Part shown: piece by piece, positions 4,575 to 49,883 of the stretch
How positions within the stretch are numbered: the stretch's first letter is position 1
Layout: every line of letters begins with the position of its first letter
DNA from: an uncultured bacterium
GTDB taxonomy: Bacteria; Patescibacteriota; Minisyncoccia; Phycocordibacterales; UBA2100
Assembly (NCBI GenBank): GCA_903854215.1
Contig: CAINVT010000009.1
Span: forward strand, 191-64,190
Reading direction: 5' to 3'
Length of the DNA: 64,000 bases
Program-made: the position numbers and the translations under genes
Notes under the pieces: model-generated
Database searches by the model: none
What the model saw: only the letters and a program-made list of their open reading frames with translations
Told to the model about the DNA's origin: nothing

Positions 4575-6536
4575 ATGAAGGTCAACGAAGTTCGCGCCAA
4601 ATATTTCGAATATTTCAAAGCGCGCGGTCATGTCGAAATTCCGTCGGCATCTCTCGTGCCGCAAAACGATCCGACGACACTCTTTACCGGTAGCGGTATG
4701 CAACCGCTTCTGCCGTATTTGCTGGGCGAAGTGCATCCGAAGGGTAACCGACTCGTCGATAGTCAGAAAAGTTTTCGTGCGGAAGATATTGAGGAAGTCG
4801 GTGATAACCGTCATACGACGTTCTTCGAGATGCTCGGCAACTGGTCTCTCGGTGATTACTTCAAGCACGAACAGCTGCAATGGTTTTTCGAATTTCTTAC
4901 CGACGAGGTCGGTGTCGATCCGAGTAGGCTCTACGTGACCGCGTTCATGGGCGATGAGAAGAATAACTTGCCCAAAGATACTGAGGCTGTTGATATCTGG
5001 AAAGGACTTTTCGCCGGAAAAGGTATTGAGGCACATGCAATTGAGATCGGTTCCGAGGCTGACGGATATGCGAAGGGAATGCAGGGCGGCCGTATCTTTT
5101 ACTACGAAGCGAAGAAGAATTGGTGGAGTCGGGCAGGCGTACCCGAAAAGATGCCGGCCGGGGAACCAGGTGGACCGGATAGCGAGGTTTTTTACGATTT
5201 CGGATTGCCTCATGACGAAAGCTTTGGTGCGAATTGCCATCCGAATTGCGACTGCGGGCGATTCATGGAGCTCGGAAACTCGGTTTTTATGCAATATCTG
5301 AAGAATGAAGACGGCACATTCGGCTTGCTACCGAAGCAGAATGTCGATTTCGGAGGCGGAATAGAGCGCATCACGGCAGCAAGTAATAACGACCCCGATG
5401 TATTCCATATCGATGCATTCATGGATGTGATCGATCTACTGGTCCATTTTTCCGGTAAGCCCTATGACGATAGTGCCTGGAAGAAGTCCTATCGAATCGT
5501 TGCGGATCATATGCGCGCTTCAGTTTTTATGCTCGCCGACGGCGTTCGTCCGAGTAATACCGATCGCGGATATGTTTTGCGACGACTCTTGCGTCGCGCA
5601 GCGCAGCATGCACAGAAGCTTGGTGTTGAAAATGATCAGAAAGAAGAAAGTATGCTCAATCGATGTGCCGTGATTATTATCGAAAAATACAAGGAAGCGT
5701 ATCCGGAGCTTGCAACGGAAGAGATGTACGAGGCAATAACCAGTGAGATATGGAAGGAAGAGAAGCAGTTCGGCCACGCATTGGTGACCGGAATGAAAGA
5801 ATTCGAAAAACTCACTTCAAATGTGGGACTTACGAAGTCCCACATTTTGGGGGAAGATGCTTTTATGCTTTTTACAACGTATGGATTTCCGTTCGAAATG
5901 ACTCAAGAGATCGCAGCAGAGCGTGGTCTTTCTGTCGACGCCGATGGTTTCAAGGCGCTCATGATCAAACATCAGGATCTTTCTCGTGCGGGCAGTGAAC
6001 AAAAGTTCAAAGGTGGCTTGGCCGATCATTCAGAAGCGACTACTCGGCTGCATACCGCGCATCACGTGCTTCTCAAGGCACTGCAGACCGTTCTGGGCGA
6101 TCATGTGAAGCAGCGCGGCAGCAATATCACGAGCGAGCGATTACGCATCGACTTTTCTCATACTGCCAAGATGACGCCGGAACAGATCGCAGCTGTTGAA
6201 TGTATCGTCAATGAAGTGATCAGAAAGGAATTACCAGTGGTCCGTAGCACACTTCCGAAAGATGAGGCGGAGAAGCTCGGTGCCGAGCACGAGTTCGGTG
6301 CAAAGTATCCGGACATGGTCTCGATCTATTCAATCGGTCCTATTGGTGCAACGGAATCGGATCCGCATTATGATCAGGCATATTCACTCGAATTCTGCGG
6401 CGGTCCGCATGTATCGAATACTCGCGAGCTCGCTTTTTCAGACAGCTCCTCGACTGCGCTCGGGCCAAAATTTAAAATTTTGAAAGAAGAGGCGGTCGCA
6501 GCAGGAATTCGTCGTATCAAGGCGGTGATCCAATAA
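4575..6536 (+). CDS. alaS: alanine-tRNA ligase, short form (653 aa; lacks the C-terminal oligomerisation/C-Ala region)
   Basis: The N-terminus MKVNEVRAKYFEYFKARGHVEIPSASLVPQNDPTTLFTGSGMQ is the class II AlaRS catalytic core. The editing-domain HxxxH motif is present (HTAHHVLLKAL). The protein ends roughly 200 aa short of the canonical bacterial AlaRS. Confidence 0.85.
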   Translation: MKVNEVRAKYFEYFKARGHVEIPSASLVPQNDPTTLFTGSGMQPLLPYLLGEVHPKGNRLVDSQKSFRAEDIEEVGDNRHTTFFEMLGNWSLGDYFKHEQLQWFFEFLTDEVGVDPSRLYVTAFMGDEKNNLPKDTEAVDIWKGLFAGKGIEAHAIEIGSEADGYAKGMQGGRIFYYEAKKNWWSRAGVPEKMPAGEPGGPDSEVFYDFGLPHDESFGANCHPNCDCGRFMELGNSVFMQYLKNEDGTFGLLPKQNVDFGGGIERITAASNNDPDVFHIDAFMDVIDLLVHFSGKPYDDSAWKKSYRIVADHMRASVFMLADGVRPSNTDRGYVLRRLLRRAAQHAQKLGVENDQKEESMLNRCAVIIIEKYKEAYPELATEEMYEAITSEIWKEEKQFGHALVTGMKEFEKLTSNVGLTKSHILGEDAFMLFTTYGFPFEMTQEIAAERGLSVDADGFKALMIKHQDLSRAGSEQKFKGGLADHSEATTRLHTAHHVLLKALQTVLGDHVKQRGSNITSERLRIDFSHTAKMTPEQIAAVECIVNEVIRKELPVVRSTLPKDEAEKLGAEHEFGAKYPDMVSIYSIGPIGATESDPHYDQAYSLEFCGGPHVSNTRELAFSDSSSTALGPKFKILKEEAVAAGIRRIKAVIQ

Positions 6537-13066: not shown

Positions 13067-13465
13067 ATGGCAACAAAAGCATTGGTATATACAGAAGCCG
13101 TCGGACGCCGTAAGACTGCGTCTGCGCGTGTTCGTATCACACCGGCGAAGAATTCGACGATGACGGTCAACGACAAGCCGGCTGAGGAATATTTCCCGTT
13201 GCCGATGATGGTGAAGACTGCCTTCGCGCCGATTACACTGCTCGGTACCCCATACGCAGTGACCGTCAAGGTCCACGGCGGCGGTCATAAGTCACAGGCA
13301 GAAGCAGTGCGCCTCGGTATTTCTCGCGCAATGATCGAGATCGTGCCGGAACAACGAAAGGATCTCAAAGTTCGCGGATATCTGAAACGCGACCCGCGTG
13401 CAAAGGAACGCAAGAAGTTCGGTCTCAAGGGCGCACGCCGTGCTCCTCAATGGTCGAAGCGATAG
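13067..13465 (+). CDS. rpsI: 30S ribosomal protein S9
   Basis: The C-terminus [22 protein letters not shown]...[24 protein letters not shown] is the S9 signature. Confidence 0.95.
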
Positions 13466-13480
13466 AACTAATATCAAGAA

Positions 13481-13508
13481 CCGCCACGTCAGACGTGGCG
13501 GTTTGCAT
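13481..13508 (+). terminator. rho-independent terminator-like hairpin after rpsI
   Basis: Perfect 10-bp inverted repeat CCGCCACGTC-a-GACGTGGCGG followed by TTTGCAT. Confidence 0.5.
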
Positions 13509-13541
13509 ATGTGTAAGGCATCTGTGATATACTCCCGCTGT

Positions 13542-14081
13542 ATGAACGATCTCGTAGATGATGAAATAAACTTCGAGCCCGAAGACGAGCTCGGTGACAT
13601 CGGCGCGGCTACCGCAAAGATTAAGAAGTTGCGTGAACAGTTAAAAGAAGCGCAAGAGAAACGCGACGAATATCTCGATGGGTGGCAACGTTGTAAAGCC
13701 GATGCGATCAATGCACGCAAGGAAGCAGCACAGCAGCACGATCGTGCACATGGTCGCGGCAAAGAGTCGGTACTTGAGGATATCATTCCTGTATTGGATA
13801 GTTTTGATATGGCAGCGAACGGTGAGGCATGGCTTGCGGTAGATGAGAATTGGCGCAACGGTGTCGATCTTATAAGAAATCAATTACTCGACGTGCTTTC
13901 ACGCCATGGGATCGAGCGATTCGGAAAGGTAGGCGAACAATTCGATCATCAGCTACACGAGGCAGTGCAGGAAGTGGACGACATGCCGGGTGAGAGCGGG
14001 GAAGTCGTACGTATTTTGCGCTATGGTTACAGGATGGGTGATCGTGTGATCCGTCCCACACAGGTCATCGTGAAGCAATAG
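13542..14081 (+). CDS. grpE: nucleotide exchange factor GrpE
   Basis: ATG at 13542 (internal M of the longer ORF 13398). It has a coiled-coil N-terminus and the GrpE C-terminal beta-domain (...VRILRYGYRMGDRVIRPTQVIV). Confidence 0.85.
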   Translation: MNDLVDDEINFEPEDELGDIGAATAKIKKLREQLKEAQEKRDEYLDGWQRCKADAINARKEAAQQHDRAHGRGKESVLEDIIPVLDSFDMAANGEAWLAVDENWRNGVDLIRNQLLDVLSRHGIERFGKVGEQFDHQLHEAVQEVDDMPGESGEVVRILRYGYRMGDRVIRPTQVIVKQ

Positions 14082-14291
14082 CATTTTTCTCGCTGGCGAC
14101 ATTGGTACTCGCAACTTTGACCTCGTTCATACATAAAGTGCTCACTGCGGTGAGCATTACGGACGTGGCACAAGGGCAACAGACTCAAATAAATAAGTAC
14201 ATTATTGCGGAAGAGCACTTTGACCTCGTCGCGCCATCTTTCGCTACATCATCATCCATCCTCACCACAATACACGGTATGTGTCGCTCAT

Positions 14292-14332
14292 AAGTCCGTG
14301 AATTACCCAATTGGGTTATTTACGGGCTTTCA
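14292..14332. repeat. palindromic repeat copy 1 (core TTACCCAATTGGG)
   Basis: AGTCCGTGAATTACCCAATTGGGTTATTTACGGGCTTTCAC forms a 15-bp-arm hairpin with one mismatch and one G-U pair. It is nearly identical to the copy at 14977 and related to the perfect palindrome at 46309. Confidence 0.8.
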
Positions 14333-14356
14333 CAACGATGCTATTGTTGGACTGAT

Positions 14357-14956
14357 ATGGTCAATTCCGAGAAGATAAAACTAAAATTTCGCGGTATCAA
14401 AAAGGCTTCCGAATATCGCCGCGGAGAGCTTGCGCGCGATGTTCTGAAGGTTGCTGCTGCAGGTCTTGCAGTCGGATCAGTGATCGTGGCTCCGAATATG
14501 CCTCAAATAATTGATTACTTCGATCCGAAAGGTGTCGCAGAACGCCGGCGTATATGGCGCGCGATAAGATATTTGGAAGAGCGAAATACGATAGAGATTC
14601 GCAAGGAAGACGGACATGAGATGGTATTCCTGACGAAGAAAGGCAAAGTACAGCTCGATGAAGATTCGATATGGGATATGGAGATCAGAAAACCGTGGCA
14701 CTGGGATCATAAGTGGCGATTGATCATGTTTGATCTTCCCGCACGTTTCGAGCGGGTGCGTCGGCCATTCCGCGAGAAACTAGCCGATTTCGGTCTCGTA
14801 TCATATCAGAAATCCATCTTCATTTATCCGTATGAATGCCAGGAGGAGATCCTTACGCTCGCGGAATTTTACGGAGTTCGCGAATATATTTGTTACATCG
14901 TTGCGGACGAGATAAGTAACATGCGGGAGATTGCAAAACGGTTTGACTTGTCATGA
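14357..14956 (+). CDS. PaaX-like protein: N-terminal winged-helix domain plus C-terminal Cas2/VapD-like domain; inserted between grpE and dnaK
   Basis: 199 aa. The C-terminal WRLIMFDLPARFERVRRPFREKLADFGLVSYQKSIFIY follows the Cas2/PaaX_C pattern (hydrophobic strand-D-x-P ... R-rich ... GF/G-x-vQ-S-V/I-F). The N-terminal RYLEERNTIEIRKEDGHEMVFLTKKGK is wHTH-like. The domain assignment is from motif recognition only. Confidence 0.5.
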   Translation: MVNSEKIKLKFRGIKKASEYRRGELARDVLKVAAAGLAVGSVIVAPNMPQIIDYFDPKGVAERRRIWRAIRYLEERNTIEIRKEDGHEMVFLTKKGKVQLDEDSIWDMEIRKPWHWDHKWRLIMFDLPARFERVRRPFREKLADFGLVSYQKSIFIYPYECQEEILTLAEFYGVREYICYIVADEISNMREIAKRFDLS

Positions 14957-14976
14957 AGAATTCTTATAATGCATAG

Positions 14977-15017
14977 AGTCCGTGAATTACCCAATTGGGA
15001 TTTTTACGGACTTTCAC
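14977..15017. repeat. palindromic repeat copy 2
   Basis: AGTCCGTGAATTACCCAATTGGGATTTTTACGGACTTTCAC. The first 24 nt are identical to copy 1. It lies between the PaaX-like gene and dnaK. Confidence 0.8.
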
Positions 15018-15182
15018 CTTGGTTTCAGGTATCAACTGCAAGAATGTATATTGCACTGGATTACACTAGCAGATACCTCAAATCATGCAGGGTGTATACT
15101 GGGGGCCGGATACGTTCACCTGCACAGGAACGCGAGGAAGACGTTTAATTACGAACAGTATTAATAACATAGCAGCATACAT

Positions 15183-17069
15183 ATGGCAAAAATTTTAGGC
15201 ATCGATTTGGGTACGACCAATTCAGCAATGGCGGTGGTCAAGGGCGGCGAACCTGAGATCATTGAGAATGCTGAGGGGGCCCGTACGACACCGTCCGTCG
15301 TCGCAACATCAAAGACCGGCGAGCGTCTCGTCGGATTGCTCGCACGCCGACAGGCAGTGACCAATCCGAAGAACACGGTCTATCAGATCAAACGCTTTAT
15401 CGGTCACAATTTCGACGAGCCAGCAGTCGAAAAAGATCGTGCTTCCGTGCCATTCGAGACTCAAAAATCCGCTACCGGCGGTATCGAGGTGAAAATGGGC
15501 GATAAATGGTATCGTCCGGAAGAGATTTCGGCGATGATCCTTCAAAAATTGAAGACTGATGCGGAGACACGCCTCGGCGAAACAATCACTGAAGCGGTCA
15601 TAACCGTACCGGCGTATTTTAACGATGCACAGCGCCAGGCCACGAAGGATGCGGGCAAGATCGCCGGCCTCGATGTGAAGCGCATCATCAACGAACCGAC
15701 CGCAGCAGCGCTCGCGTACGGATTCAATAAGAAGAAGAACGAGAAGATCGTCGTATTCGATTTCGGCGGGGGCACCTTCGATATCTCCGTACTTGAAGTC
15801 GGTGATGACGTCATCGAAGTACGTTCGACCGACGGCGACTCACACCTCGGCGGCAAAGACATCGATCAAAAGATCATGGACTGGATCGCAGAAGAATTCA
15901 AAAAAGAATCCGGTATTGATGTTCGCAACGATCCGCTCGCTCGCCAGCGTCTCGACGAAGCCGCGGAGAAAGCGAAGATCGAGCTCTCGACCGCTGTCGA
16001 AAGCGAGATCAACATCCCATTCATTACCTCCGACACTTCGGGCCCCCGTCACCTGCTGGTGAAGTTGAGCCGTGCCAAGCTTGAAGAGCTTACCAATGAA
16101 TTCATCGAGCGTGCCATGACGATTACGAAGCGCGCGATGGAAGCATCGCCGTTCAAGATCACTGATATCAACGAAGTGATCCTTGTCGGCGGTCAGACAC
16201 GTATGCCTGCGATGCAGAAGGCGGTTGAGACATTCTTCAGTAAGAAACCGAATCTGAGCGTCAATCCGGACGAAGTCGTTGCCCTTGGCGCGGCTATACA
16301 GGGCGGTATTTTGCAGGGAGATGTGAAGGACGTACTTTTGCTCGATGTGATCCCGCTCTCGCTGGGTATTGAAACATACGGCGGTGTTGCCACGAAGCTT
16401 ATCGAACGCAATACGACGATCCCGACATCACGTTCGCAAACATTCTCAACCGCATCCGATAATCAACCCTCGGTCGAGATCCACATCGTACAAGGTGAAC
16501 GTCCGATGGCGACTGACAACAAATCGCTCGGCCGGTTCAATCTTGATGGTATTCCTCCCGCGCCGCGCGGTATGCCGCAGGTCGAAGTAAGCTTCGACAT
16601 CGATGCGAACGGTATCCTTTCGGTCAAAGCAAAGGATAAGACAACCAACAAAGAGCAGTCGATCCGCATCGAAGCATCATCCGGACTTTCTGACACAGAA
16701 GTTGAAAAAATGCGCAAAGATGCGGAAGTGAACGCCGAGGCGGACAAGAAGAAACAAGAGCTCGTCGAATCGCAGAATGCTGCCGACCAGATGGTCTATG
16801 CCGCAGAAAAGGCACTCAAAGAACACGGAGACAAAGTATCAGATGATATCAAAAAAGGTGTTCAGGAGAAGATTGATGCTCTGAAGGCGGCGCGCGCCGG
16901 TGTGGACGCACTGACGATCAAGTCCGCCGCGGATGTGCTATCCACTGAAATGAGTAAGATCGGCCCCGCCGTCGCCCAAGCTAAGACAGACGAGGAAGCG
17001 GCAGCGAAGAATCAGCAACCGCCACAAGATCAGACACCTCCTACAGACACAACGGGTGAGCAGAAGTAA
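15183..17069 (+). CDS. dnaK: molecular chaperone DnaK (Hsp70)
   Basis: 628 aa with [21 protein letters not shown] and the full Hsp70 ATPase and substrate-binding domains. Confidence 0.97.
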
Positions 17070-17140: not shown

Positions 17141-18241
17141 ATGAATAGCATGAAGGACTACTATACGATTCTCGGCGTACCACGATCGGCGACCGAAGAT
17201 GATATCAAAAAGGCATTTCGCAAGCTCGCCCAAAAATATCATCCCGACAAAAAAGGCGGCGACGAAGCCAAGTTCAAGGAGATGAGCGAAGCGTATTCGA
17301 TCCTTTCCGACAAAAAGCGCCGTGCGGAGTACGATACCTACGGCAAAACGTTCGCCGGCGGCAATGGCGGCAGCGCTTCGGGCGCAGGATTCGGCGGATT
17401 CGACTTCTCGAATTTTCAGCAGGGATTTCAAGGATTCAACGGTCAGAACGTGGAGTTCGATCTCGGCGATATTTTCGGCGATATCTTTGGAGGTGCAGGT
17501 GGGCAATCGCGAGAACAGGCGAGAGGGCGTGATATTTCGATCGATATCGAGCTCACATTTCGCGAGAGTATTTTTGGTGCCGATCGACGCGTGCTTATTT
17601 CAAAGATGGCCGTCTGTGATGTATGCTCCGGCACCGGTGCCAAAAGAGGCACGAAGCTCGTGTCGTGCAAGACATGCAACGGCAAAGGTGAGATCCGCGA
17701 GACACGTAATACGTTCTTCGGTAATTTCACTTCTGCCCGATTATGTCCGACCTGTAGTGGGCGTGGAGAGGTGCCTGAAACACCGTGCGAAGTATGTCAC
17801 GGTGCCGGCGTCGCCAAACGGCAAGAAGAGATTCATATTTCCGTTCCGTCGGGCGTTCTCGATGGAGAAATGATCCGTATGCCCGGTCGCGGCGAAGCGG
17901 TAAAAGCCGGTGGATCGGGTGATCTCTATGTCAAATTACACATAAAGAAAGATGCGTCGTTCTCGCGCGATGGCAACAATCTCCTGACCGCGCTCTCGAT
18001 CAAGCTTACCGATGCACTGCTCGGCGGTGAATATCACATCCGGACACTCGATGGGGAAGAGGTCGTCACTGTGCCTGCAGGTATCGTGCACGGCGAGACC
18101 ATTCGTATCCGCGGCAAAGGAGTTCCCGGAGCTCGCGGCGGCCGAGGTGATCTTCTGGTGCGGATCGATATCGAATTCCCGAAAAAACTGACTCACACGG
18201 CACGTGATCTTATTGATAAGCTTCGCGCTGAAGGACTCTAA
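17141..18241 (+). CDS. dnaJ: molecular chaperone DnaJ
   Basis: J-domain with HPD (KYHPDKK), a G/F-rich linker, and four CxxCxGxG zinc-finger repeats. Confidence 0.95.
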
Positions 18242-46308: not shown

Positions 46309-46342
46309 GTCCGCAATTTACCCAATTGGGTAAATTGCGGAC
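46309..46342. repeat. palindromic repeat copy 3 (perfect 34-bp palindrome) between convergent cysS and leuS
   Basis: GTCCGCAATTTACCCAATTGGGTAAATTGCGGAC shares the TTACCCAATTGGGTAA core and AGTCCG...CGGAC ends with the copies at 14292 and 14977. Confidence 0.8.
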
Positions 46343-46394: not shown

Positions 46395-49300
46395 TCAATC
46401 TTCGACAACAACGAAGTTGACTAGCCGATTCGGTACGATGATGACGCGCGAGACAGTCTTACCATCCAGCTTTTCTACTACCGCTTCGTGGGCTAAGTTT
46501 TCAAGCGTCGATTTGTCCGAATCAATGGCCGCATCGATTTCCCCACGGGTCTTGCCGTTGATCTGTATCGCAATGTGCGCGGTGGTGCCTTTTGATTTCG
46601 TCTCGTCGGCGACCGGCCATGGCTCGAGTCGCAATTCGGTCGGGTGACCGCTTTTTTCCCAGAGCTCGTGAGTGAGATGCGGTGCGAATGGCGCGAGCAA
46701 TTTGAGAAACGTCTCGTACGCTTCAGATGAAACACTGTCGAGCTTCTCATATTCATTCAAAAGGATCATCAGTGCCGAGACGGCCGTATTCATTTTGAGC
46801 TTCTCAATATCATCGCTGACCTTCTTGATCGTCTGATGCAAAAGTGTTTCGAGCGGAGGTTCAAGCTTCGTCACGTTATCGGCCTTGATATCGGCAACGC
46901 GTTCAAGGAATCGCCGCATACCAACGACGCCGTTGTTGTTCCACGCGACCGGCTGATCGAATGGCCCGATGAACATTTCGTACAGGCGCAACGAGTCAGC
47001 GCCGACGGATTCAACGAGCGCATCTGGGCTCACCGAGTTCCCCTTCGACTTTGACATCTTCGAGCCGTCTTCGGCGAGAATAAGCCCATGGCTCGTGCGC
47101 TTCATATACGGCTCTGGCGAAGGCACTAATCCCTGGTCGAATAGGAATTTATGCCAAAAGCGCGAATAGAGAAGGTGCAGCACCGTGTGTTCCATGCCTC
47201 CGTTGTACCAATTCACCGGTGTCCAATACTTCATCAGGTCCGGCGAAGCGAATTCATGCGTATTCTGCGGATCTATATAGCGCAAGTAGTACCAGCTCGA
47301 GCCCGCCCAGTTGGGCATCACGTCCGTTTCTCGCTTTGCATCACCGCCGCACTTCGGGCACTTTGTGTTGACCCACTTAGTGATATTTGCGAGCGGAGAT
47401 TCTCCCGTTTCGGTCGGTTCATATTTTTCCACTTCCGGTAACGTGACCGGCAATTGATCTTCCGGCACCGGCTGCCATCCGCATCTCTCACAATGGATCA
47501 TGGGTATCGGCTCGCCCCAGTATCGCTGGCGGCTGAATACCCAATCTCGAAGTTTGAATGTCGTTACCATCTTCCCGCCGACGAATTCAGTGATCATTTT
47601 CTTCGCCTCATCGCTCGGAAGCCCGCTCAGTGTACCGGAGTTGACCAGAAATCCGTCATCGACAAAAAATTTGTCATTGAGATATTCCCAATCAATTTTA
47701 TCCTTGTCTTTTCCTCTATTTTTAAGCTGTTGCTCCTTGAACTTTTTAACAAATCGCTGTGACAACACCAGGGCTGTGTGGTGATTCAGTGATTTCTCTT
47801 GTTCCTCGAAATCATCATCCTGGCAATCAAATTCTCGAATATATGGTCCTATATCAATTTCGATTCCCTCGTCGTTTTTTAATATTGAATTCGTCAAATT
47901 TTCTGATATTTTCTTTTCTGCCACCTTGTGGAATCCAAGTTCGCCGAATAACGTAAGCAATTTCTGGTATGAATTGTCATCTTTTGTTATCAGATCAATA
48001 TCCTCAAATTCGCGATAAATGATTTTTGCATAAAAAGCGCAGGCCAAACCACCCAAAACCCAGAATTTGATATCTTTCTTTTTTGCGGCCTCATATATGG
48101 TGTCCAATGCAGTCAAAACTTTTTCAGTTTTTTCAAAGGCGGACATATCCGGCGTAACGGATTGAATAATAGGTAACCCGTACTTCTTAGCAAATGCACC
48201 ATCGCGCTCATCATGGGCTGGCACGGCCATGATAGCGCCGGTGCCGTAACTGCCGAGCACATAATCAGCAATGAAAATCGGAATCTCTTTTTTATTCGCC
48301 GGGTTTATAGCCTTGATCCCCTTCAGTTCGACGCCGGTCTTTTCTTTACCTTCAGCTGTGCGATCGATATCCGATTTGTTCCGTGCCGCCGTTTGATACG
48401 CGATCACCTCATCTTTGTTATCGAATTCATTCGCAAGCATCGAGACCAACGGATGTTCCGGTGCAAGTACCATATACGTCGCGCCGAATAATGTATCCGG
48501 GCGAGTCGTGAATACGGTCAAGCTCTGCATAAAGAGTTTCTTGAGACCATCGGTAATGGGCCCGAGTTCAAGCGATTCTTCAGCATCCGTCTGTTCGAGC
48601 ACATACTTTCCAGTCGCCTTCGAGATATATAATCCGCGAAGCGGAAGGTACGGGTCTACAGCGCCGTGCGATTCCGAAGTCAGAATAACGGGTCGTGTCG
48701 TTTCTATATGTGTTGCAACTTTCCCGGGCGTTATGAAGCATAAATTATTTCTCCATTCCGCATCAACTTTTCCACCACGCTTTCGGGCGATGTCCGCATA
48801 ATATGACTGCATACGACCACCTATCTCTTCGATGGAAAGTGATTTCTCGTCATCTCCGGCGAGCGCATTCCGTTTTACAGCGATCGGATCGATCATTTCC
48901 CCGTCGATAAAGAATCCGCTGTCATCGGCGAATACCGGCAGATCGGTGAGCGCTGCGAGAGCCCGAGCTTTTTTTTCGGAATTTTCTTCGAGAGTTCGGG
49001 CGTCTTCCGAGACGTCAAACCGTTCGATGCCAATATCCTTTGGCATCAACAATTCGATATCGATATGCCCTTCTTCGAAAAGTTTCCGCATACGCTTGAG
49101 CTTTCCCAGATTATTCGTGGCGAAAACGATCCTCATGCGCGGACGTTGCCACGAAAGCGAAAATGATATCTCCGCTCCATCCGACGGTCCGATCCAATTG
49201 CGCTGTTCCGTCTTCGCTCGCTCGATGTAATCAACGGTATCGAGGTCGTCGTAAAGTCGCTGCGCATATTTCGTAATTGCCATCATCCACTGTTCCTTTT

Positions 49301-49883
49301 CACGCTTCTCAACCGGCGTACCGCATCGCTCGCAGCAGCCGTCGACGACCTCTTCGTTGGCAAGTCCGATCTTGTCCTTCGGGCACCAATTGATCAGCGT
49401 CTTTGCTTTATACGTCAGACCTTTTTTAAAGAATTGTAAAAAAAGCCACTGCGTCCATTTGTAATATGAAGAATCGGTCGTGTTGATCTCGCGAGACCAA
49501 TCGAACGAGAGCCCGAGCGATTTGATCTGCCGGCGGAAGTTGTCGGTGTTCTCTTTGGTAACGATACGCGGATCCCGACCTGTCTTCAGTGCATAATTTT
49601 CCGTCGGTAAACCGAATGCATCCCAGCCGATCGGATATAAGACGTTATACCCTTGTGCACGGCGTTTGCGCGCCAGGACGTCGAGCGCGGTCCAGCTCCG
49701 CACATGCCCTACATGAAGCCCCTCACCGGAAGGATATGGAAACTCGATCATCAGATAATCCTTCGGCTTCTCTGAAACATCATCGGCGCGATACGCCGAT
49801 TCCTTCTCCCATCGAGACTGCCACTTCTTCTCTATCTTCTTGTGATCGTAATTCTTCATAATAAGTAATGTACGTCCTTCCAA
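46395..49883 (-). CDS. leuS: leucine-tRNA ligase (1162 aa) with two large insertions in the CP1 editing domain: a Ham1/ITPase-like domain and an ANT(2'')-like nucleotidyltransferase domain
   Basis: Class I HVGH and KMSKS motifs and an intact editing core (TVFTTRPDTLFGATY; GTGAIMAVPAHDERD). Insertion 1 (residues about 245-453, nt about 48525..49151) contains RIVFATNNLGKLKRMRKL ... LEENSEKKARALAALTDLPVFADDSGFFIDG, the Ham1/RdgB motif set. Insertion 2 (residues about 578-745, nt about 47649..48152) contains KFWVLGGLACAFYAKIIYREFEDIDLI...LFGELGF, the aminoglycoside 2''-nucleotidyltransferase-like pattern. Confidence 0.88.
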   Translation of the reverse strand: MEGRTLLIMKNYDHKKIEKKWQSRWEKESAYRADDVSEKPKDYLMIEFPYPSGEGLHVGHVRSWTALDVLARKRRAQGYNVLYPIGWDAFGLPTENYALKTGRDPRIVTKENTDNFRRQIKSLGLSFDWSREINTTDSSYYKWTQWLFLQFFKKGLTYKAKTLINWCPKDKIGLANEEVVDGCCERCGTPVEKREKEQWMMAITKYAQRLYDDLDTVDYIERAKTEQRNWIGPSDGAEISFSLSWQRPRMRIVFATNNLGKLKRMRKLFEEGHIDIELLMPKDIGIERFDVSEDARTLEENSEKKARALAALTDLPVFADDSGFFIDGEMIDPIAVKRNALAGDDEKSLSIEEIGGRMQSYYADIARKRGGKVDAEWRNNLCFITPGKVATHIETTRPVILTSESHGAVDPYLPLRGLYISKATGKYVLEQTDAEESLELGPITDGLKKLFMQSLTVFTTRPDTLFGATYMVLAPEHPLVSMLANEFDNKDEVIAYQTAARNKSDIDRTAEGKEKTGVELKGIKAINPANKKEIPIFIADYVLGSYGTGAIMAVPAHDERDGAFAKKYGLPIIQSVTPDMSAFEKTEKVLTALDTIYEAAKKKDIKFWVLGGLACAFYAKIIYREFEDIDLITKDDNSYQKLLTLFGELGFHKVAEKKISENLTNSILKNDEGIEIDIGPYIREFDCQDDDFEEQEKSLNHHTALVLSQRFVKKFKEQQLKNRGKDKDKIDWEYLNDKFFVDDGFLVNSGTLSGLPSDEAKKMITEFVGGKMVTTFKLRDWVFSRQRYWGEPIPMIHCERCGWQPVPEDQLPVTLPEVEKYEPTETGESPLANITKWVNTKCPKCGGDAKRETDVMPNWAGSSWYYLRYIDPQNTHEFASPDLMKYWTPVNWYNGGMEHTVLHLLYSRFWHKFLFDQGLVPSPEPYMKRTSHGLILAEDGSKMSKSKGNSVSPDALVESVGADSLRLYEMFIGPFDQPVAWNNNGVVGMRRFLERVADIKADNVTKLEPPLETLLHQTIKKVSDDIEKLKMNTAVSALMILLNEYEKLDSVSSEAYETFLKLLAPFAPHLTHELWEKSGHPTELRLEPWPVADETKSKGTTAHIAIQINGKTRGEIDAAIDSDKSTLENLAHEAVVEKLDGKTVSRVIIVPNRLVNFVVVED

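Follow-up and report, generated by a model that had tools for sequence, protein, structure and literature searches.

A minimal PaaX-type protein flanked by its own palindromes beside dnaK in a Patescibacteria lineage, a candidate autoregulated repressor

The dnaK-dnaJ operon is normally under the control of HrcA/CIRCE (controlling inverted repeat of chaperone expression), HspR or sigma-32. Here, we describe a locus of an uncultured Patescibacteriota bacterium (UBA2100) in which the gene of a small PaaX-like protein, flanked by two copies of a long palindrome, lies between grpE and dnaK-dnaJ and is a candidate regulator of the operon. The window, meaning the whole stretch of DNA analyzed, was 64,000 nt long (contig CAINVT010000009.1 of GCA_903854215.1, positions 191-64,190). 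X denotes the product of its open reading frame (ORF) 14357..14956, and O1 and O2 denote the upstream and downstream palindrome copies, both proposed operators (Table 1).

In the window ORF list, X was located downstream of a ribosomal-protein/rpoA block, between grpE and dnaK-dnaJ, and was separated from grpE by an unusually long spacer of 275 nt. The gene was flanked by a 41-nt direct repeat (14293-14333 and 14977-15017; 93% identical, non-palindromic TTTCAC tail included), the core of which is a 34-nt palindrome, GTCCGTGAATTACCCAATTGGG(T/A)T(A/T)TTTACGG(G/A)C, with zero matches in shuffled sequence. The hairpins predicted for the palindromes had free energies between -22 and -29 kcal/mol (for the third window copy, if transcribed, about -29 kcal/mol whichever strand is read), and the window copies had no U-tract. 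The order rps...rpsI-(hypothetical)-grpE-X-dnaK-dnaJ was preserved among relatives 51-86% identical, found in metagenomes of groundwater, soil and other sources. A recent insertion of X, one of the options raised in a preliminary description of the locus, is contradicted by this synteny, which is kept in diverged relatives down to ~50% identity; the GC content of X (0.44-0.47) was only mildly lower than that of its neighbors (0.51-0.55).

Pfam PF20803 ("PaaX protein central Cas2-like domain") matched X residues 115-186 (E=5.5e-16; 58.9 bits, cut-off 24). On the same stretch, NCBIfam TIGR01573 (Cas2) scored 19.5 bits, below its cut-off of 24.5, and the PADLOC Cas2 models matched X weakly (1e-4). 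AlphaFold2, run with 66 diverse family members aligned, gave a model with a predicted local distance difference test (pLDDT) score of 91.8 and a predicted template modeling score of 0.77 (pLDDT of 80 in an earlier run with a 25-sequence alignment). The model consists of a winged helix (helices 24-38, 48-54 and 60-75; beta-wing 79-92), a linker helix and a beta-alpha-beta-beta-alpha-beta domain; the predicted recognition helix spans residues 60-75, ERRRIWRAIRYLEERN. When searched against the PDB with Foldseek, the models of both runs ranked Escherichia coli PaaX (8a39) first (E=4e-5 and 1.3e-5; 186-196 columns, N-terminal domain included), followed by Cas2, VapD, the PaaX-like Rv0674 and small winged-helix proteins (AF1382, PadR, MosR). 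The preliminary description had read the protein as a winged helix joined to a Cas2/VapD-like, PaaX-like domain, and both profile search and structure prediction found that similarity.

No match to the Pfam PaaX N-terminal model was found in X at E<=10, and there was no Pfam match to the PaaX_C effector domain; the chain stops at residue 199, with nothing beyond the Cas2-like domain. Pfam likewise gave no match to HrcA or to transposase, HUH or DDE families, and a PHROGs search returned nothing significant. Within the Cas2-like domain, W116, W120, F125, D126, R135, S153 and P158 are invariant in the family. The invariant F125-D126, R135, Q151 and S153 align with the Cas2 beta1-alpha1-beta2 hallmark motif of solved chains (3exc, 6jhz, 8ia4), which reads LVVYDV..R..L..G..iQrSaF in 3exc. 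X residues ~29-47 (14441-14497) are as hydrophobic as a membrane helix, with a family median Kyte-Doolittle maximum of 1.98 (19 residues, 206 members) and a maximum of at least 1.6 in 77% of members. A membrane-anchor role for this segment was demoted, as the AlphaFold2 model places it in helix 1 and the loop of the winged helix; the lowest pLDDT of the model is at residues 41-43.

A profile search covering 1.84 billion representatives returned, in clusters at 50% identity, 765 at E<=1e-30 and 2,946 at E<=1e-10. Among the family representatives, the top 150 were mostly 167-240 residues long and were matched over most of the profile, so they share the architecture of X; like X, most of them lack the C-terminal effector domain. 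Every organism name given by the sources was Patescibacteria, Parcubacteria or Paceibacterota, and members were annotated as "hypothetical", "DNA-binding transcriptional regulator PaaX", [quoted passage not shown] or "CRISPR-associated endonuclease Cas2".

The pairing of gene and palindrome was a property of the family. From 80 metagenomic loci encoding X relatives of 30-55% identity (a few of them near-duplicates), 75 genes had both flanks, and their 250-nt upstream and downstream flanks were compared for an ungapped shared segment scoring at least 16. Such a segment was present in 47 of the 75 (31 scoring at least 20), against 0 of 282 control genes from the same loci. The shared segment was a long, usually near-perfect, lineage-specific palindrome (centers CAATTG, CGATCG, CTATAG, CATATG, CCATGG, CGACCG). 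Within 200 nt of X genes, long palindromes had a density of 1.09 per kb, compared with 0.035 per kb in the rest of these loci (31-fold), and those in the rest were mostly ordinary A-tract/GC-stem/T-tract terminators of different look. The palindrome sequence was conserved among genomes whose X proteins are ~50% identical and differed between X lineages. Synteny was constant within lineages and varied between them (dnaK operon, topA/dprA/serS, DUF362-X-truA, ychF-X, argS/dut/X/glyA, ileS), from which it follows that X is vertically inherited. Where tested, X appeared to be single copy, with one copy in the 64-kb window. As to the question, raised in the preliminary description, whether paralogues lie beside the same palindromes, the window held no X paralogue, but the palindromes did recur, on both sides of X, as a third copy at 46309-46342 and on the flanks of X genes family-wide.

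Some loci differ in layout from the window, where the pair is a direct repeat. At L144 (3499-4744), a family member has six copies of its palindrome, GGACTATAAGGACATATGTTCTTATAGTCC, around it, four upstream and two downstream. At L094, L098 and L100, the palindromes have asymmetric centers, and the upstream and downstream copies are inverted.

Promoters were called from consensus matches only. The candidate dnaK promoter (Table 1) has its -35 element, TTGACT (14943-14948), within the last codons of X, TTT-GAC-TTG (F-D-L). This "FDL" is fixed in nearly all members of the dnaK-linked subfamily; other lineages have F-K/N/G/S-L. The pattern suggests a dual constraint, coding and promoter, on the C-terminal codons. 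Since O2 begins 7 nt after the -10 element, it covers the expected dnaK transcription start and early transcribed region. The same series (TTGACT, a spacer of 16-18 nt, TAyAaT and then 6-9 nt, up to ~11, to the palindrome) recurs in 12 independent loci (the window, L003, L016, L026, L027, L029, L069, L087, L090, L167, L168 and L169), among which the palindrome itself drifts (center CCAATTGG, GCAATTGC or ACATATGT; ends GTCCG...CGGAC or CTCCTG...CAGGAG).

On the other side of the gene, the -35 element of the putative X promoter, TTTACG, sits within the right arm of O1, and its -10 hexamer (14342-14347) ends 9 nt before the ATG at 14357, which would imply a leaderless or near-leaderless X mRNA. 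An extended -10, TGnTAnnnT, is present at -15 to -18 from the ATG (ending 6-9 nt before it), without a Shine-Dalgarno sequence, in 8 of 12 dnaK-subfamily loci, and at -22 (ending 13 nt before it) in a ninth, L087. In several of those loci, TTTACA or TTTACG, in the right arm of the upstream palindrome, lies 17 nt upstream of the extended -10. Given this register of palindromes and promoters, a protein bound to the palindromes would cover the X -35 and the dnaK start region, and a regulatory role, as the preliminary description had proposed, gains support from the placement of the sites relative to conserved promoter-like elements.

At L092 (X 41% identical), another gene separates X from dnaK, and X itself has no flanking palindromes. 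A palindrome with the same arms and a different center, AAAACGCTCCAGTAAATTAT-CCACTTGC-ATAATTTACTGGAGCGTTTT (5391-5438), lies 50 nt upstream of dnaK, with terminator-like A and T tracts. We count it in favor of a repressor that the palindrome is still directly upstream of dnaK though X is separated from it.

Table 1. Coordinates of gene X, its domains, the palindromes, the promoter-like elements and neighboring genes (window positions, except for the last row, where each position belongs to the locus named)
Feature	Position	Strand	Basis or remark
Gene X, mini-PaaX protein (winged helix + Cas2-like domain)	14357..14956	+	ORF, ATG start, 199 aa; Pfam; AlphaFold2; Foldseek
Winged helix-turn-helix domain, residues ~24-107	14426..14677	+	AlphaFold2 secondary structure, Foldseek, weak profile match to AF1382 (2qvo)
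Cas2-like ferredoxin-fold domain, residues ~115-199	14699..14953	+	Pfam, PADLOC, motif alignment
O1, upstream palindrome copy, proposed operator, GTCCGTGAATTACCCAATTGGGTTATTTACGGGC	14294..14327	.	Ends 29 nt before X ATG; orthologous loci keep the palindrome with sequence drift
O2, downstream palindrome copy, proposed operator, GTCCGTGAATTACCCAATTGGGATTTTTACGGAC	14978..15011	.	Starts 7 nt after -10 of candidate dnaK promoter
Third copy, perfect 34-nt palindrome, GTCCGCAATTTACCCAATTGGGTAAATTGCGGAC	46309..46342	.	Stands alone between 3' ends of convergent cysS and leuS
Putative X promoter: -35 TTTACG 14319-14324, 17-nt spacer, extended -10 TGcTATTGT 14339-14347	14319..14347	+	Consensus match; extended -10 in 8 of 12 dnaK-subfamily loci
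Near-consensus sigma-70-type promoter facing dnaK, TTGACT-16-TATAAT	14943..14970	+	11/12 consensus positions; best match in region
grpE	13530..14081	+	Pfam GrpE E=6.2e-41
dnaK	15183..17069	+	ORF and translation; L001 and L003 orthologues with Pfam HSP70 domain
dnaJ	17141..18241	+	ORF and translation; L001 and L003 orthologues with Pfam DnaJ domain
Lone palindrome copies at repair or replication genes	L054 1060-1089, L085 1442-1471, L032 5902-5931, L059 5490-5519, L057 7172-7201, L031 4715-4744		

No CIRCE element (TTAGCACTC-N9-GAGTGCTAA) was found in the window, even at 3 mismatches, and hrcA was not at its usual place beside grpE in the window or in the L001/L003 loci. For this reason, we propose X as a minimal PaaX-type repressor of its own gene and of dnaK-dnaJ, standing in for HrcA/CIRCE; we hold this reading with slightly better than even confidence. 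In this Patescibacteria lineage, X most likely fills the role of HrcA/CIRCE or of HspR/HAIR (HspR-associated inverted repeat). E. coli PaaX binds TGATTC-N27-GAATCA (an inverted repeat of 39 bp) and shuts off its own promoter sterically, blocking RNA polymerase (PMC9493321). A long palindrome is thus the operator geometry to be expected, and a dimer joined through the Cas2-like domains, its two winged helices at the far ends, would explain palindromes of 34-40 bp. The conserved blocks in a 36-site alignment of this lineage (C5, G7, A10; CCAATTGG; T29, C32, G34), with the outer blocks roughly one helical turn from the palindrome center and variable spacers between, are those expected of a protein that reads one face of duplex DNA.

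We infer DNA binding, repression and an inducing signal for X as follows. The Cas2-like domain would form the dimer, as in PaaX, and the dimer would space two winged helices to read the ~34-38 bp palindrome through the blocks C.G..A ... CCAATTGG ... T..C.G. Bound to O1, X would overlap its own -35 and repress itself; bound to O2, directly after the strong conserved dnaK-dnaJ promoter, it would block initiation or early elongation. Release under proteotoxic stress might come about by titration of DnaK, in the manner of HspR, or by thermolability of X, and looping between the two flanking sites may occur.

One genome per species was scanned for a degenerate form of the window palindrome. The scan gave 78 loci, ~30 of them in Patescibacteria and sharing an extended consensus beyond the searched pattern. 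Recorded copy numbers were low, with 3 per 64 kb here and 1-7 per Patescibacteria genome by strict pattern matching. Lone copies precede uvrA (two genomes), recR, an ogt-like gene and tmk by 25-46 nt, and one overlaps the called holB start; that ~6 of ~20 lone sites adjoin DNA repair or replication genes, a count made after the fact, hints at a wider stress regulon. In a Kaiserbacteria genome (L081), both palindrome variants, CTCCTG...CAGGAG and GTCCG...CGGAC, lie 55 nt apart (1845-1874 and 1900-1929) between convergent genes.

Several observations weigh against the repressor reading. The chief one that it leaves unexplained is the copy at 46309-46342, which lies between convergent stop codons with no promoter-like element facing outward; in related genomes, 6 of ~20 lone-site locations likewise have convergent genes on their two sides, a setting in which a promoter is not to be expected. 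Across the wider family, a convergent gene comes next after the downstream palindrome in 15 of 32 cases, so that the downstream copy cannot generally be the operator of a downstream promoter. Lone sites have varied neighbors (uvrA in each of two genomes, recR, an ogt-like gene, tmk/holB, mreB, a glycosidase, a methyltransferase, tyrS/trpS and two tRNAs), and neither groESL nor clpB was found beside a palindrome among the annotated sites of the scan; with such mixed neighbors and no such site, the idea of a heat-shock regulon was rejected. Many copies are perfect over 40-60 nt, and L112, L113 and L118 have copy-specific outer extensions that are still self-complementary. The arms covary, with 64 double-change cells against 28.6 +/- 3.9 in shuffles (0 of 500 shuffles reached 64) and 87.9% paired cells against 78.6%, numbers that are inflated by the relatedness of sites; T-A and A-T arm variants are both present within single genomes. 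Lone copies are more perfect than X-adjacent ones (mean of 1.67 vs 2.3-3.25 mismatches; p=0.015). The perfection, the extensions, the covariation and the greater perfection of lone copies together suggest that hairpin or cruciform formation matters too, or generates copies. X also retains a Cas2-type Asp/Arg/Gln/Ser motif, which a pure dimerization module would not obviously need.

These points would fit our main rival reading, a system like that of repetitive extragenic palindromic (REP) sequences, in which the palindromes act as RNA, single-stranded DNA or cruciform hairpins (insulators, terminators or stabilizers of mRNA ends) that X binds or cuts, the winged helix recognizing them and the Cas2/VapD-like domain serving as nuclease, with dnaK regulation incidental or secondary. 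REP-associated tyrosine transposases (RAYTs) have REP sequences of their own on their flanks and as their substrates, and the cognate, lineage-specific palindromes on the flanks of X family-wide, inverted in L094, L098 and L100, fit that pattern, as do the lone intergenic copies, many of them perfect and between convergent genes, the covarying arms with their self-complementary extensions, the Cas2 motif with its beta1 Asp and the stability of the predicted hairpins. We nevertheless regard it as rather unlikely: the nearest structural relative of X is a DNA-binding repressor, not a nuclease, the copy number is low, the conserved blocks and fixed promoter register fit recognition of duplex DNA, and the canonical terminators in the same loci look different. 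G-U-compatible mismatches on the sense and antisense strands numbered 5 and 5, showing no bias in few data, and with no sense-strand bias a role in RNA only is unsupported. A broader form, which we judge still less likely, is a Patescibacteria-wide system in which a Cas2-derived winged-helix protein recognizes, and possibly cuts or propagates, hairpin-forming repeats, control of dnaK being the co-option of one lineage; such a system would amount to a REP/RAYT analogue without a transposase, or to an evolutionary offshoot of the CRISPR (clustered regularly interspaced short palindromic repeats) adaptation module. Replication-terminator and DNA-uptake-sequence readings were dropped, since a perfect palindrome lacks polarity and the copies are far too few.

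The remaining explanations carry far less weight. A unit of ~720 bp bounded by a 41-nt direct repeat with a non-palindromic TTTCAC tail, inverted ends in other lineages and genomic contexts that differ between lineages would suit the relic of a small mobile cassette (~700 bp, IS200-like layout, hairpin ends, one small protein encoded) inserted between grpE and dnaK, with lone palindromes as empty targets or leftover ends; yet gene order holds within each lineage even at deep divergence, the window has one copy, X lacks any match to transposase, HUH or DDE families (no significant PHROG), and promoter elements are interlocked with both palindromes and coding sequence, which makes such an origin very improbable. 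We give equally little credence to the palindromes being ordinary terminators or RNase III sites unrelated to X, which would then regulate something else or nothing nearby. Downstream copies do lie close after the stop codon, and some copies (L092, L120) have A/T-rich flanks, but the sharing of one sequence by the two flanks of X in 47 of 75 loci against none of the controls, the 31-fold enrichment, the conservation of the palindrome across ~50%-identity genomes with its change between X lineages and the missing U-tract of the window copies all speak against it. That X is a true, phenylacetyl-CoA-responsive PaaX or a stray CRISPR Cas2, as the source annotations would have it, is scarcely credible. 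Neither the PaaX_C nor the PaaX N-terminal Pfam model matched, no paa genes were found near X (the neighbors being ribosomal protein genes, rpoA, grpE, dnaK and dnaJ), and the Cas2 score fell below its cut-off. No CRISPR-like or tandem repeat array was present in the window, the ORF lists for 9-21 kb and 44.5-49.5 kb showed no cas genes, and no cas1-like ORF was near X, in agreement with the earlier view that this is not a CRISPR locus.

Other features of the window are given here for completeness. The grpE-X spacer holds an exact 13-nt direct repeat, ACTTTGACCTCGT (14114-14126 and 14217-14229), which contains a -35-like TTGACC. Between rpsI and grpE, a perfect palindrome with 12-bp arms, AACCGCCACGTC-T-GACGTGGCGGTT (13479-13503), has no sequence relation to the X palindrome and possibly serves as a terminator for the ribosomal-protein operon. 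An Rfam search of 13300-15400 returned nothing meaningful, and no tRNAs were found in the window. LeuS (46395-49883, - strand) is 1162 aa long and has two inserted domains, one Ham1/ITPase-like (residues 252-327) and one nucleotidyltransferase-like (residues 585-692), beside the editing domain.

Full-text searches found no literature on the X family, the X palindromes or a Patescibacteria dnaK regulator, and the searches made found none on gene regulation in the ultra-small, mostly uncultured Patescibacteria. The locus offers a concrete, testable pairing of regulator and operator at dnaK-dnaJ, where an unrelated, cut-down PaaX-type protein seems to take the place of the usual regulators. The rule that each gene has its own palindrome yields a table of protein/DNA-site pairs for studying how recognition specificity evolves, and the same table can be used to correct "hypothetical", "PaaX" and "Cas2" annotations. 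Why a Cas2-type motif persists in a repressor-like protein is a further question posed by the finding, which would be of greater interest if the Cas2-like domain proved to act on hairpins.

Compared with known systems, X shares with PaaX (8a39, 3l09) the joining of a winged helix at the N-terminus to the Cas2-like domain that forms the middle of PaaX, and the autoregulation of PaaX on a long inverted repeat has its likeness in the ~34-38 bp palindromes at the putative promoter of X. It differs in length (199 aa vs ~305-316 aa), in lacking the C-terminal helical phenylacetyl-CoA-binding domain and a Pfam PaaX N-terminal match, in its setting (Patescibacteria, in the dnaK operon or other housekeeping contexts, without paa genes) and in having a site on both sides of its gene. 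With Cas2 and VapD, X has in common the ferredoxin-like fold, the motif (hydrophobic beta1)-D ... R ... G ... Q-x-S-(V/I)-F and the Foldseek matches, whereas it scores below family cut-offs, is fused to a winged helix and has no cas1 or CRISPR array. The REP/RAYT system resembles it in that an apparently single-copy gene, passed on vertically, has cognate lineage-specific palindromes on its flanks, with extra intergenic copies often between convergent genes; X, however, is not a Y1/HUH transposase, its sites stand in fixed promoter register, and strict pattern matching gave a handful of palindromes per genome, where REP/RAYT systems have tens to hundreds of dispersed ones. To HrcA/CIRCE and HspR/HAIR, X would be a functional analogue, not a member: the gene lies inside the dnaK operon, an inverted repeat lies between promoter and dnaK, and autoregulation is likely, but there is no relation in sequence or fold, the palindrome is unrelated to CIRCE or HAIR, and no groESL site was found. 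X is outside the strict PaaX family (no effector domain, no paa context), Cas2, HrcA/CIRCE and RAYT; it is likest PaaX in architecture and in its proposed long inverted-repeat operator and autoregulation, and likest HrcA or HspR in its proposed place in the circuit.

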